Position numbers and translations under genes: made by a program. DNA of 64,000 nt from Candidatus Latescibacterota bacterium. Its GTDB lineage: Bacteria; Latescibacterota; UBA2968; UBA8231. The stretch's first letter is position 1. Each line of letters begins with the position of its first letter. Shown one piece after another: positions 25,819 through 30,031 of this stretch. The notes below the pieces were generated by a model that saw only the letters and a program-made list of their open reading frames with translations, was not told the DNA's origin and searched no databases. The stretch is from the NCBI GenBank assembly GCA_965197905.1, contig CBDAOB010000004.1, positions 192,001 to 256,000 of the forward strand, in the 5' to 3' direction.

Positions 25819-26136
25819 ATGATTTCTATCGGATTGAGCATGAGGGTGCGACCGGGTTGTTACGCCGAGTACAAGGAGGCTCACGACAATCTTTGGTCCG
25901 ACCTGGCCGAGAGTATGACGGACAACAACGTCAGCATGGCGATTTACCGTTTTGAAGACCAACTGTTTCTTCACGCGGTAGCCCCAACCAGGGACGACTG
26001 GGATAAGAGCAGGAAGGTGGAGGTGCTCGATCGGTGGAGCGAGTACATGTCCAAGCTTTTAGAGACCGACGCCGACGGTGATATCATCTTCCACGAGTTG
26101 CCGGAGGCGTTCGCCTTCGGCTCGTTCAAGGAGTGA
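25819..26136 (+). CDS. rhaM: L-rhamnose mutarotase-family protein
   Basis: EYKEAHDNLW motif, W..YM..L, about 105 aa; AAGGAG RBS. Confidence 0.75.
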   Translation: MISIGLSMRVRPGCYAEYKEAHDNLWSDLAESMTDNNVSMAIYRFEDQLFLHAVAPTRDDWDKSRKVEVLDRWSEYMSKLLETDADGDIIFHELPEAFAFGSFKE

Positions 26137-26148
26137 GGGAAGAACAAT

Positions 26149-27792
26149 ATGAGCACACCACAAAGCGCATTGAATCCAATGGGGTTCCCACCCCAGATCG
26201 AGCCTCTGGCTATGGCGCCGCGACTGGAGAGCATAGCTGGCAAGACGGTGTACCTGGTCGACTGTCGCTTTGACGACGGCGACATTCTGATCGGCCAGAT
26301 GCAGGAATGGTTCTCCGAAAACATGCCGGACGTGCATACCGAGGTGCGCCGGAAGTCAGGGGTGTACACCAAACGGGATCCCGATCTTTACGACGAAATC
26401 AGGGAAAGGGGAGACGCGGCCATAGTCGGCGTCGGCCACTGAAGCACCTGCGCGCCGGCGGTCGCCGACCAATGCCAGATACTCGAAGCGGAGTACGGGG
26501 TGCCAACAGCATCCGTGCAGACGGACATATTCGAACCCGTAGTCCGGGCTTCCTCGCGTCAACGGGGAATGCCCCATCAGCGATTCGTTTTCGTGCCGCA
26601 ACCGGTGATGGGAAAGTCGCCAGAAGAGTTGCGGGCATACGTGGATGGACCGGATGCGATTACCGGGCGTCCGTTCATGGAAGAGGTTGTTACCTCGCTC
26701 ACCGCCCCGCTCACCGATCGGGACACCGGGCACGGGCACTACGATCGCTCCACTCCCCGAACCGTTGAGGCCGGCAGCGAGCAAGAGCTTCACGATCTCT
26801 TTCTCGCCAACAACTGGACCGACCAGCTGCCCGTCGTACTGCCCACGGTGGAACGGGTGGAAGCCATGCTTGCGGGTAGCAGCCGACCGGCCGATGAGGT
26901 GGTTGGGCACATGCAGCCAACTTCGACGCGGGAGGCCTGGGAGTTCACCGTCGAGAAGGTGGCGGTCAATGCGGTAATGGCGGGGGCAAAACCCGAGTAC
27001 TTCCCGGTCATACTCGCGCTGGCCGCCAGTGAATCCACCGCCCGCGGCAGCACGACCAGCTCATCGGCGAACATGGTCATGGTGAACGGCCCGATCCGCG
27101 AAGAAATCGCCATGAACAGCGGTATCGGCGCCATGGGACCGTACAATCATGCCAATGCCACCATCGGCAGGGCGTATGGCCTGCTCTCCCAGAACCTGCA
27201 GGGCGGATCGGTTCCGCAACTGACCTACCTAGGGTCTCAGGGAAACGGATACGGCTATGGAAATCCAACATTCGCCGAAAATGAGGAGCGCAGCCCCTGG
27301 GTCCCTTTTCACGTTGAAAAAGGGTTCGACAAGAATCAAAGCGTCGTCAGCATTATAGCCGATGTTAAGACGACCTCCTTCTTGCTGGGACTGCGGGAGA
27401 AACACTGGCGTGAGCACGTCACTCACATGCTTCGCGGGATGAACCCCTTCAATCCGCCCACCCTCGTACTTGATCCGATTACGGCACGCCAGTTTGTCGA
27501 CCGAGGTGGGTTCGACACGAAAGAGAAGCTGGCGGAGTGGATCTATGAAGCGGCAACGATCAAAGCGGGAGAATACTGGGACTACCAGCTCATACAGAAC
27601 TACGTCTACCCGCGAGCCCTGAATGGCCAAGAGCCCTACGCTTCGTTGCTTGAGGCCGATCCCGAGGAGCAGATCCCCATGTTCCGACGGGAGACAATAA
27701 ACGTCGTGGTGGTCGGCGGTGAGACCAACGGATACTGGCGCATAATGGGCTGCAAACATGCGAAGAGTGTGTGTATCGATGACTGGCGGTAG
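26149..27792 (+). CDS. Probable selenoprotein: UGSC-family domain (Sec at codon 98, U-S-T-C) fused to a large C-terminal domain, 547 aa with TGA readthrough
   Basis: TGA at 26440-26442 is in frame with the 26500..27792 ORF, with 19 sense codons between (STCAPAVADQCQILEAEYG). The context APRL..IAGKTV...DAAIVGVGH-U-STC...E..GVP matches UGSC-type proteins as I recall them. SECIS-like hairpin directly downstream. Confidence 0.8.
26448..26478 (+). promoter_or_regulatory. Candidate bacterial SECIS element
   Basis: Upper stem CGGC/GCCG closes a GGUC loop (26460-26463) that starts 17 nt after the UGA; lower stem CUG-c-GCG / UGC-CAG. Confidence 0.6.
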
Positions 27793-27794
27793 AG

Positions 27795-29129
27795 ATGAAT
27801 AGAGCGTCGAAGGCAGACGATGCTAGCTCTTCCAAATTGACGATGATTGTCGGTGTCGTAGCCGTATTGGCAGCGATCGCCGCAGCAACGTCTTTCGGAT
27901 TCGAGCTGTGGTCGCAAAAGCAGGCCGACCGGCACCTGGCAAAAGGCGCAGAGCAGCTGCAACTTGGTCGGCCTGGTCAGGCTGCGATCGAATTCAACCG
28001 CGCCATGGAGCTGGACCCTCTACGCGTCGACGCCATGCACCAGCTGGGGCGACTGTATGTAGGACAGGGTCGCCTGGAAGAGGCGGATTCACTGCTACAG
28101 CGCGCTTTAGAGATCGCGCCGGAAAACACGGAGCTTCATCTGGATCTAGGGGATATCTATCTCAGAATGAAGGATATGGACCGCGCCCTCGACATTATTC
28201 AACGGGCGCTCGAGATAGATCCCGAACTGGCCTTGGCACACCACAACATGGGGTATCTGCGCATTATCCGCAGCGAGGTTCCAGAGGCGGAGGAGTCGTT
28301 TCGCAAGGCGGTTGAGCTCGGCGCCGACTTCCCCATGGCGCATTTCAATCTCGGGAAGGCCTTAGCGCTTCAGGACGACCATGCGGCGGCGTTGGTCTCC
28401 TTTCAGCGAGCTGTCGAGAAGGACTCTACCGTGTCGGTGGCTTACCTCGCCATGGGCCAGTCGCTGGTTTCTCTCGGGGAACCAGGCCGTGCGTTGAAGG
28501 CGTATCACACTGCAATGAAGCTGCAAGGAAAAAACCCGAGGCTGCTGACGATGATCGGCGATCTCCACGCCAGCGGCGAAAAGTATGAGGAGGCCATCGA
28601 GTTCTACAGGTCGGCGATCGCGCTACAACCCACCTATCCGTGGCCTCATTCCGGTTTGGGCAGGGTCTACGTCAAGACCGGAAAAACGGAGGAAGGCCAT
28701 CGGGAGCTCCGCCGTTTCGAGCACCTTCAGAACGTCGACCGGAAGCTAAGCGCCGCAAACCGCAGAATCGACGAAAATCCGCAGGATCCAGGAACGCACC
28801 TCGCTTTAGCGCGACTGTACGTCAACGAAAGCCGAATGCAGGATGCCGTGCGCGCCTTGCAGCGGCTGGCGCAACTGAATCCGGGAATCCAGGAGACCTA
28901 CTATCTGCTCGGAATTGCCTACGAGGGATTGAACGACTATACGTCCGCGGAACTGGCATTGCGGAAGAGCATCGAGCTAAACCGCGGGCATGTTCCATCC
29001 TACATCGCAATTGCCGGAGTATATAAGAATCTGGGACAGCATGAGGCAGCGCTGGCTGCGTTCGAAGCAGCCGCCAAAGTGAACCCCGGAAATACGGGTT
29101 CTGCTCGCGGCAAGATGTTCACGAAATAA
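27795..29129 (+). CDS. Membrane-anchored tetratricopeptide-repeat protein
   Basis: N-terminal TM helix followed by about 11 TPR units (A..LG..Y...G...EA...ALE.P); starts 2 nt after the previous stop. Confidence 0.9.
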   Translation: MNRASKADDASSSKLTMIVGVVAVLAAIAAATSFGFELWSQKQADRHLAKGAEQLQLGRPGQAAIEFNRAMELDPLRVDAMHQLGRLYVGQGRLEEADSLLQRALEIAPENTELHLDLGDIYLRMKDMDRALDIIQRALEIDPELALAHHNMGYLRIIRSEVPEAEESFRKAVELGADFPMAHFNLGKALALQDDHAAALVSFQRAVEKDSTVSVAYLAMGQSLVSLGEPGRALKAYHTAMKLQGKNPRLLTMIGDLHASGEKYEEAIEFYRSAIALQPTYPWPHSGLGRVYVKTGKTEEGHRELRRFEHLQNVDRKLSAANRRIDENPQDPGTHLALARLYVNESRMQDAVRALQRLAQLNPGIQETYYLLGIAYEGLNDYTSAELALRKSIELNRGHVPSYIAIAGVYKNLGQHEAALAAFEAAAKVNPGNTGSARGKMFTK

Positions 29130-29134
29130 CAGGC

Positions 29135-30031
29135 CTATTCGAGCTCGTAGAACCGCAAGGCATTTCCATGCCAGAGCTTCTGATTTTCCGCTGTCGAACG
29201 TAGTGCAACGATCTGCCGCAACGCTTCGACCCATTCGCGGAAAGAAGCAACCATCGTGCAGACCGGCCAATCTCCTCCGAAAATCACGCGTTCGGGTCCG
29301 AAGCTCCCGAGGCAATGATTGACGATGGGGGCGAGATCGTCCGCCGACCATTGCGGCCGCGCGCGGGCGACAATCCCCGATATCTTGCACATCATGTTCG
29401 CTCTCTCTCCCAGTGCTCCCATGTCCCGCATCCATTGATCGCGGTTGTGTCCCGCCTCTCCGGTATCCCCGGGTTGGGAGCCGTTGATCACATTCGGATC
29501 GGCGTTGCCGCAGTGATCAACCACGAATCGGGTGCCGGGGCATGAATCCGCCAGAGTTACCGCATCCGCAAGCTCGCCGGCCCGCATACACAGGTCGAAA
29601 CGCAATCCGATCTCACCCAGATAGCGAATGTTGGCCAGGAATGTTTCTTCTAGACAGAGCCCTCGAGGCGCAGAAACGGGATGCAAGACCTGGCGGATCC
29701 CTTTGATGTATTCCGAGGTCTTGAAGGTATCGACGTAGGCGCGAAAACCATCCTCGATGGGCCTGCCGGACAGTACGGCGGCGCAGGTTGGGTTGTCATC
29801 TCGTTGGCATAAATCTATGATGAATTCGGCTTCAGCCTCCCGTTGCTCATCCGGCACGTCCACTTCCATATAGATAGCCCTGTCAAGTCCCAGTTCCGAC
29901 GTGGCGTCCAGATAGTCGGCCGTGGAGTAGGTCCGGTCCAAGGGTGCTGCTCCTGCTGTCCAGGGCAGATCGAACTTCTCGAGGTCCCAAAGATGCTGGT
30001 GCGTATCAATGATCGTTTCCATGGGCGTCAT
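29135..30031 (-). CDS. Amidohydrolase_2 family protein (sugar-lactonase-like)
   Basis: IDTHQHLWD, GIRQVL, VVDHCG, CKISG, FGPERVIFGGDWPVC and NALRFY. Confidence 0.88.
   Translation of the reverse strand: MTPMETIIDTHQHLWDLEKFDLPWTAGAAPLDRTYSTADYLDATSELGLDRAIYMEVDVPDEQREAEAEFIIDLCQRDDNPTCAAVLSGRPIEDGFRAYVDTFKTSEYIKGIRQVLHPVSAPRGLCLEETFLANIRYLGEIGLRFDLCMRAGELADAVTLADSCPGTRFVVDHCGNADPNVINGSQPGDTGEAGHNRDQWMRDMGALGERANMMCKISGIVARARPQWSADDLAPIVNHCLGSFGPERVIFGGDWPVCTMVASFREWVEALRQIVALRSTAENQKLWHGNALRFYELE

Follow-up and report, generated by a model that had tools for sequence, protein, structure and literature searches.

Positions 26149-27792 of a 64,000-nucleotide stretch of DNA from a Candidatus Latescibacterota bacterium (GenBank assembly GCA_965197905.1, contig CBDAOB010000004.1, positions 192,001 to 256,000 of the forward strand; this whole stretch is called the window below) very probably form a single gene for a 547-residue selenoprotein, in which the UGA at codon 98 is read as selenocysteine (Sec). 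A first-pass annotation of the same DNA had joined two open reading frames (ORFs), of 97 and 430 amino acids (aa), into one 547-aa frame through TGA 26440-26442, and the frames, the domain match and the homologues all agree with this proposal. Because Cys pairs with TGA at this codon among relatives, a hairpin is kept only in the Sec forms, and the genome encodes a full Sec machinery, we infer that SelB and Sec-tRNA decode this UGA as Sec, in agreement with the earlier assignment of the TGA to Sec in a USTC motif. The gene and its parts, all on the + strand, are:

26149..27792, +: predicted selenoprotein gene, 547 codons plus stop (start ATG 26149, Sec codon 98, stop TAG 27790-27792)
26170..26643, +: UGSC redox domain, residues 8-165 (PF24696, NF041046, AlphaFold and VIA)
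26440..26442, +: TGA, very probably selenocysteine U98 in the motif H-U-S-T-C (Cys or TGA in homologues; public contigs)
26456..26467, +: hairpin CGGC-GGUC-GCCG, resembling a selenocysteine insertion sequence (SECIS); stem 26456-59 with 26464-67, loop 26460-63
26500..26502, +: GTG, apparent start of the 430-aa ORF; codon 118, within the UGSC domain, with homologues continuing through it
26746..27789, +: C-terminal domain of about 350 residues, in no Pfam family; motifs WTDxLPxVLPT, VEKVAVNAVMAG, NGPIR, GPYNHANATIGRA and FAENEE

The frame from ATG 26149 to the TAG ending at 27792 is interrupted solely by TGA 26440-26442. The first ORF of 97 aa (26149-26442) ends in ...DAAIVGVGH followed by TGA, beyond which the same frame stays open (STCAPAVADQCQILEAEYGVPT...) up to TAG 27790-27792, and with U in place of this TGA the protein has 547 residues and the motif H97-U98-S99-T100-C101. 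A GAGGG (26135-26139) precedes ATG 26149 by 9 nt. A match to Pfam family PF24696 spans codon 98 (residues 8-165, 79.8 bits against a cut-off of 25, E 3.4e-22) and places the protein in that family, with the U/C-x-x-C motif at the conserved position as U98-S-T-C101, a USTC variant of UGSC. An AlphaFold model of the read-through protein was confident throughout, with a predicted local distance difference test (pLDDT) of 94.5 and a predicted template modelling score (pTM) of 0.92. Contigs from four public runs of four studies had no alternative letter at 26440-26442, and two of these contigs covered 26149-26463 with no differences; as contigs were used for this check, rare variants could be masked, and one run may be the source of the assembly itself.

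Relatives of the read-through protein pair Cys with TGA at codon 98. In a protein search over 5.8 billion proteins, 6760 relatives were found among the 8000 candidates scored, and most top relatives are about 550 aa long, 59-63% identical, and cover 99-100% of the read-through query. All 16 of 16 aligned full-length homologues have Cys at the position of codon 98, within an invariant GVGH-C-STC-AP. Six-frame searches of 60 related genomes gave 13 full-length orthologues, 66-96% identical and from genomes of the same family or class; every one of these matches contains a single TGA. A scan of one genome per species confirmed 574 matches, of which the best 80 were retained; among 94 related loci, codon 98 is TGA in 64 and TGC or TGT in 30. 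According to the database records, the Sec forms come from Chloroflexota, Latescibacterota, Rokubacteria, Binatia, deltaproteobacteria and others, and the Cys forms chiefly from Alphaproteobacteria. The gene thus shows one mark of bacterial selenoproteins, an in-frame UGA aligned with the Cys of homologues. One orthologue (G032:C3:6426572-6428196) was recovered as two abutting pieces, one of residues 6-136 that includes the TGA and one of residues 138-547, which points to a frameshift or another break around codon 137 at that locus.

A further mark of bacterial selenoproteins, a SECIS-like hairpin shortly 3' of the UGA, is likewise present, and the hairpin is kept only in the Sec forms. Its loop occupies positions +20 to +23 counted from the U of UGA, and the conserved 13-nt core CCGGCGGTCGCCG (26455-26467) occurs in 58 of 60 distinct Sec contexts compared to none of 30 Cys contexts, even though most Sec and Cys forms share one peptide, (C/U)-S-T-C-A-P-A-V-A. 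Sec forms have an entropy of 0-0.12 bit at the third codon positions of the core (+17, +20, +23 and +26), compared to 0.97-1.50 bit for Cys forms, whereas the third positions flanking the core vary freely in Sec forms (0.8-1.9 bit). Moreover, at position +27, 59 of 60 Sec forms have G, in codons for D, E, V, A or G, and all 30 Cys forms have A, in a Thr codon. RNAalifold applied to 60 sequences, with the one TGA locus that has no hairpin (L105, see below) left out, returned exactly the four stem pairs and the GGUC loop. One locus (L042) has a C to U change in the stem that preserves a G.U pair. In a Xanthobacteraceae metagenome-assembled genome (MAG; locus L097, 9195-9272, minus strand), a paralogue with the motif GVGL-U-STCSP stands alongside a Cys-type orthologue; this paralogue has CCCCAC-GGUC-GUGGGG in the same register, with changes on both sides at two pairs. 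A helix taken from the minimum-energy fold of 26430-26520 was dropped, as it pairs bases 5' of the UGA that vary uncompensated. The SECIS of E. coli fdhF has a GGUC loop, and the hairpin described here shares with fdhF-type bacterial SECIS elements both its place soon 3' of the UGA and its GGUC apical loop.

The same stretch stood out in the public contigs. Contig depth in four metagenome runs was 100-650 at 26424-26478, which holds the Sec codon and the hairpin, compared to about 10-30 in the majority of bins; it was also raised in certain other conserved bins. Numerous contigs stop at 26463-26475, where the near-identical SECIS stretch of many organisms seems to break assemblies.

The genome (assembly of 6.69 Mb, 91% complete, 4.5% contamination) encodes tRNA-Sec together with SelA, SelB and SelD, as expected of a host of selenoproteins. 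tRNA-Sec scored 69 bits, and ARAGORN assigned it the anticodon tca; selA scored 471.6 bits, the selB wing domain 53.3 bits inside a 687-aa frame, and selD 344.7 bits with one in-frame TGA. The checks that the first-pass annotation had proposed for its Sec assignment therefore came out in its favour: relatives align across codon 98 and have Cys or TGA there, the public contigs read TGA and neither TGC nor TGT, and selA, selB, selD and tRNA-Sec are all in the genome.

The selD gene of this genome appears to be a selenoprotein gene itself (...TCG-U-AAK...; G000:C4:605494-609411, TGA at locus position 1528), and its UGA is followed by a long SECIS hairpin made up of CAGUCC-GGUC-GGACUG and a lower stem of 7 bp. 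Both selD and the UGSC gene have the GGUC loop, at +20 to +23 relative to the UGA; the selD stem has 7+7 bp compared to 4 conserved bp in the UGSC gene, whose hairpin is without an evident bulged U. As judged from sequence, the selD hairpin is a stronger internal control than the covariation of the UGSC hairpin. A second, small candidate selenoprotein of the UGSC family is encoded in the same genome at G000:C3:421051-424365 (minus strand, about locus positions 1501-1815); it matches PF24696 (E 3.0e-17), has one TGA, and carries the motif ...LVMGVVD-U-CGASSC-SLHD..., which is neither UGSC nor USTC.

In the AlphaFold model, the N-terminal ~190 residues form a five-unit beta-alpha domain of flavodoxin/CheY-like type, with U98 and C101 between strand 90-96 and helix 101-116. 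This five-unit arrangement is a common one, and among the VIA matches listed, those at Z 8-10 are for the most part to receiver domains, Rossmann-type domains and other alpha/beta domains of flavodoxin-like kind. A profile search of the PDB by sequence returned nothing below E 0.05, Foldseek with the whole model returned no match at E<=0.001, and matches in the ESM Atlas were to unnamed clusters only.

The C-terminal domain is the best-conserved part of the protein. D225, E269, N333, H334, N336, R341, E377, E379 and E380, among others, are invariant in a 17-sequence alignment, and these invariant polar residues suggest a catalytic pocket. Folded alone, the domain reached a pLDDT of 94.7, and its relatives number 3949 representative clusters at E<=0.001. 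The Pfam scan of the read-through protein placed no family over it, and the best VIA match had Z 5.6 over 75 residues, none of 48,161 chains reaching Z>=8. Class I fumarate hydratase was rejected as its fold, since the best Foldseek match (E 2.5e-3) had a TM score of only 0.22 and a root-mean-square deviation of 17. The lack of a solved relative is not proof that the predicted fold is new.

In the 530-aa relative P0257, an AhpC-TSA/Redoxin domain (with CPTT) stands N-terminal to the same C-terminal domain, replacing UGSC. In one genus of the same class (L033-L037), the C-terminal domain (38-42% identity) and a canonical UGSC selenoprotein are encoded by adjacent separate genes; there the break falls between the domains, and the gene order is reversed relative to the fusion. 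The C-terminal domain and UGSC stay linked, fused or adjacent, across phyla, and judged by sequence matches the domain appears always to be accompanied by a thiol/selenol module, namely fused UGSC in most relatives, fused Redoxin in P0257, or an adjacent UGSC gene in one genus. In the split arrangement of that genus, for example at L033 around 2787, the stand-alone C-domain gene is followed, after a short gap, by a UGSC selenoprotein gene with EGLAD-U-GSC-TTC and a different hairpin. Other relatives of the C-terminal domain are about 710 aa long with two tandem copies, or stand alone at 343-371 aa.

A gene resembling thioredoxin reductase (TrxR) lies in the flanks of 28 of the 94 loci by tblastn (19 of the 30 loci with Cys and 9 of the 64 with Sec), usually directly downstream. 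This count replaced a neighbourhood survey based on ORF calling (28 of the best-80 loci, 141 proteins), which undercounted TrxR-like neighbours (10/28) because it picked antisense ORFs in GC-rich DNA. The encoded partners are about 300-330 aa long, and all 9 that were aligned retain CA[ST]C as their redox motif. Ten that were scanned scored 214-319 bits on TIGR01292, under its cut-off of 343, and by sequence these neighbours look like dedicated paralogues.

The absence of a TrxR-like neighbour goes with a third Cys of the protein. The window protein has C109 (26473-26475), giving U98...C101...C109, and a TrxR-like neighbour was found at none of 40 Sec loci with C109 compared to 28 of 54 loci without C109. 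The contrast held when only loci flanked by 1.5 kb or more on each side were counted (0/20 with C109 compared to 26/41 without). As the loci are related to each other, we treat this contrast as a clade-level pattern and applied no statistical test. Malonyl-CoA decarboxylase adjoins the UGSC gene or its TrxR-like neighbour at five loci (L095, L098, L100, L102 and L106, from several Alphaproteobacteria and an Agromyces), and an acyl-CoA synthetase (AMP-binding) gene is also there at L095, L098 and L106; this association may be lineage synteny only.

These features are most simply joined in the following probable mechanism. The UGSC module, with U98-S-T-C101 at a strand-to-helix turn, would cycle between selenol/thiol and selenenylsulfide and hand reducing equivalents on to a substrate bound in the polar, conserved C-terminal domain, loosely like the transfer in Sec-dependent glycine and proline reductases. 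In many other genomes, the dedicated adjacent TrxR-like flavoprotein would re-reduce the UGSC module, so that electrons would pass from NAD(P)H to the flavoprotein, the U/C98-C101 centre and finally the substrate in the C-terminal domain. The window copy, of the C109 clade and with no TrxR neighbour, would draw on the housekeeping thioredoxin system or another donor instead. It is possible, and we suggest it only tentatively, that the C-terminal domain, with a fold unseen in solved structures, carries out catalysis in a new kind of selenium/thiol-dependent reductase, and that the family is split into two electron-supply regimes, one with a dedicated TrxR-like partner and one, that of the window clade, with C109 as an extra resolving Cys and a general reductant. 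We infer a selenol/thiol reductase role for the UGSC protein as a whole, and use the term oxidoreductase only in this sense because the accessible parts of reviews of 2022 and 2026 name no biochemically studied member.

Several results weigh against the assignment of the UGA to Sec in a UGSC protein. The hairpin has just 4 bp and is worth -6.5 kcal/mol locally, the 91-nt region 26430-26520 is folded no more stably than shuffled sequences (z 0.33), and an Rfam scan of 26300-26700 (E<=10) found no matching family, just a chance match to Moco-II (14.1 bits, E 8.4). Covariation consists of the L097 paralogue and the G.U change of L042, and is thin because the stem is nearly invariant. The match to the NCBIfam equivalog NF041046 (UGSC_fam) has 66.7 bits, below the cut-off of 125. 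The N-terminal domain is not thioredoxin-like in the model, and a thioredoxin-fold entry is absent among the VIA matches listed, which does not exclude unlisted families. Finally, none of the 21 public runs listed is an RNA run.

Other explanations of the TGA must be set beside these results. The TGA could be a true stop, left by a nonsense mutation, a pseudogene or a sequencing error that splits a Cys-type gene. Such accidents happen in the UGSC family, as indicated by L105 from a Rhodospirillales MAG, whose Sec/Cys codon (at about 2451-2528) is TGA although codon usage is that of Cys forms and the hairpin is missing (TGA TCC ACC TGC GCG CCT GCC GTG...); by sequence, this TGA is probably itself a nonsense mutation, pseudogene or assembly error and not a Sec codon. 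The window gene does not resemble L105, however, and conservation of TGA in 64 of 94 loci of several phyla with the protein conserved on both sides, confinement of the hairpin to the TGA forms, concurrence of the contigs of four studies and presence of the Sec machinery together make a true stop highly improbable. A division into two genes, one for a 97-aa protein that stops at the TGA and one for a 430-aa protein with GTG 26500 as its start, would account for the Shine-Dalgarno-like GGAG (26490-26493) that the first-pass annotation had pointed out 6 nt before this GTG, and which is indeed there. It would also fit the 430-aa product (P0002) output by gene callers, and the domains are truly separate genes in one genus. 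But GGAG-TAC-GGG-GTG codes for E-Y-G-V of the through-frame, conserved in all homologues, the cut would fall within a single PF24696 match and within a confidently modelled alpha/beta unit, and the truly separate cases break between the domains and in reversed order. We therefore consider that GTG 26500 is, on this sequence evidence, no genuine start, and that two genes are very unlikely. The earlier expectation that gene callers split such genes was borne out, as the protein collection contains truncated products of 383-438 aa, including the 430-aa product of the window gene. Least probable of all is a changed genetic code, in which TGA would stand for an ordinary amino acid such as Trp or Gly. 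The open frame alone would be explained in this way, but TGA is an ordinary stop in the window DNA because the upstream gene terminates in TGA 26134-26136; moreover, homologues have Cys at this position rather than Trp or Gly, and tRNA-Sec and SelB are encoded in the genome.

The functional part of our reading, electron transfer from UGSC to a substrate in the C-terminal domain, has points against it of its own. The C-terminal domain has no convincing solved structural relative by VIA or Foldseek and no invariant Cys in wider alignments, neighbours vary widely between loci, no clue to a substrate was found, and the window genome has no TrxR neighbour, its only good TrxR match being of housekeeping type (407.6 bits) and 1.2 Mb off on the same contig. 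In a complex prediction for a Rhizobium pair, the UGSC domain with its TrxR-like neighbour scored 0.53 compared to 0.00 for the best of three controls, runs agreed in at least 70% of contacts, and the partner pLDDT was 86. When the tool was calibrated, 116 of 157 solved complexes passed its mark, as did 2 of 215 mismatches; both passing mismatches, but only 18 of the 157 solved complexes, scored <=0.60. The model thus lends weak support to a UGSC/TrxR-like pairing, and the pass may merely reflect likeness, because TrxR-substrate complexes have already been solved. A genuine selenoprotein in which UGSC does not relay electrons to the C-terminal domain, acting instead as a peroxidase-like module, on protein disulfides, or as a redox sensor that regulates the C-terminal domain, would be in keeping with the AhpC/TSA-type domain as swap partner in P0257 and with the lack of an invariant Cys in wider alignments of the C-terminal domain. 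By contrast, the high conservation of the C-terminal domain with its many invariant polar residues (D225, E269, N333-H334-x-N336, R341 and E377-x-E379-E380), and its linkage to UGSC as fusions or neighbours across phyla, speak against this alternative, which we regard as rather unlikely.

The nearest genes of the window offer further context for the predicted selenoprotein gene. Upstream lies:

25819..26136, +: L-rhamnose-mutarotase-family protein, 105 aa (PF05336, E 2.9e-14)

Since its stop, TGA 26134-26136, is 12 nt before ATG 26149, the two genes could be co-transcribed; a family-wide link of the UGSC gene to an L-rhamnose-mutarotase neighbour was not found in the 28-locus neighbourhood survey. 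Downstream, a 444-aa TPR-repeat protein (27795-29129) starts 3 nt after the selenoprotein stop, followed by an Amidohydro_2 protein (29135-30031) on the strand opposite to the TPR gene; an Amidohydro_2 gene likewise lies near the orthologue at L112.

These results imply that 26149-27792 should be annotated as a single selenoprotein gene rather than as 97-aa and 430-aa hypothetical proteins, an error that is common in public data, and the 13-nt SECIS core could be used to flag Sec forms automatically. The well-predicted C-terminal domain, the TrxR-like partner present in many genomes and the natural swap of Redoxin for UGSC are testable handles on function, and the split between clades with C109 and clades with a TrxR neighbour may mark different electron donors.

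Compared to the TrxR/Trx and AhpF/AhpC systems, the UGSC family shares a TrxR-like gene beside the UGSC gene (in the 28 of 94 loci described above) with CA[ST]C kept. It differs in that the acceptor would be, according to the model, a flavodoxin-like U/CxxC domain and not a thioredoxin fold, in that the partners score under the TrxR equivalog cut-off, and in that the window genome has no such neighbour. GrdB and PrdB, the selenoproteins of Sec-dependent glycine and proline reductases, have UxxC and work with a thioredoxin-type system. By analogy, the window protein, also a UxxC selenoprotein, would probably be a reductase dependent on a thioredoxin-type system. In the Pfam scan of the read-through protein neither GRDB nor Gly_reductase was matched at E<=1, no profile-profile search having been made, and no pyruvoyl-protein partner was seen in the neighbourhoods of the 28 loci surveyed.

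The closest known system is the UGSC family itself. A 2007 paper gives UGSC as a selenoprotein of unknown function. The 'UGSC-containing protein' was a major selenoprotein family of the 2008 ocean survey, among the most abundant, represented by 255 sequences with Sec and 21 homologues with Cys (Zhang and Gladyshev, PLoS Genet 2008, PMC2398784; statements on this source refer to its accessible parts). The reviews of 2022 and 2026 list the family, and that of 2026 describes nearly all such predicted selenoproteins as largely uncharacterized in function. PMC2398784 also describes a 'UGSC/Unknown_1 fusion', and its Fig S1A aligns Unknown_1 with AVNxVMAGCxPEYxP...NGP. By eye, AVNAVMAGAKPEYFPV...VNGPIR of the window protein agrees with this alignment, and by this sequence likeness its C-terminal domain appears to be Unknown_1. 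The window protein shares with that fusion a domain across the Sec codon, U-x-x-C with Cys homologues, and the AVNxVMAG-x-PEY-P...NGP motif. It differs in having U-S-T-C where the family has U-G-S-C, in a third Cys, C109, peculiar to its clade, and in Ala (MAGA) in place of the highlighted Cys of Unknown_1 (MAGC); and where PMC2398784 guessed a thioredoxin-like fold for the UGSC domain, the window model is flavodoxin-like. NCBI names two Cys relatives (P0022 and P0082, 61-62% identical) 'UGSC family (seleno)protein'. Accordingly, the fusion of UGSC to a large domain claimed in the first-pass annotation stands, but it was neither hidden nor new, as the 2008 description and the NCBI naming indicate. 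Because the NF041046 score falls short of its cut-off and the motif is USTC, we place the protein on a divergent branch of the UGSC family and not in a new kind. Thus, fusion and family were known as a prediction, and the window gene is, by its sequence, a divergent further member.

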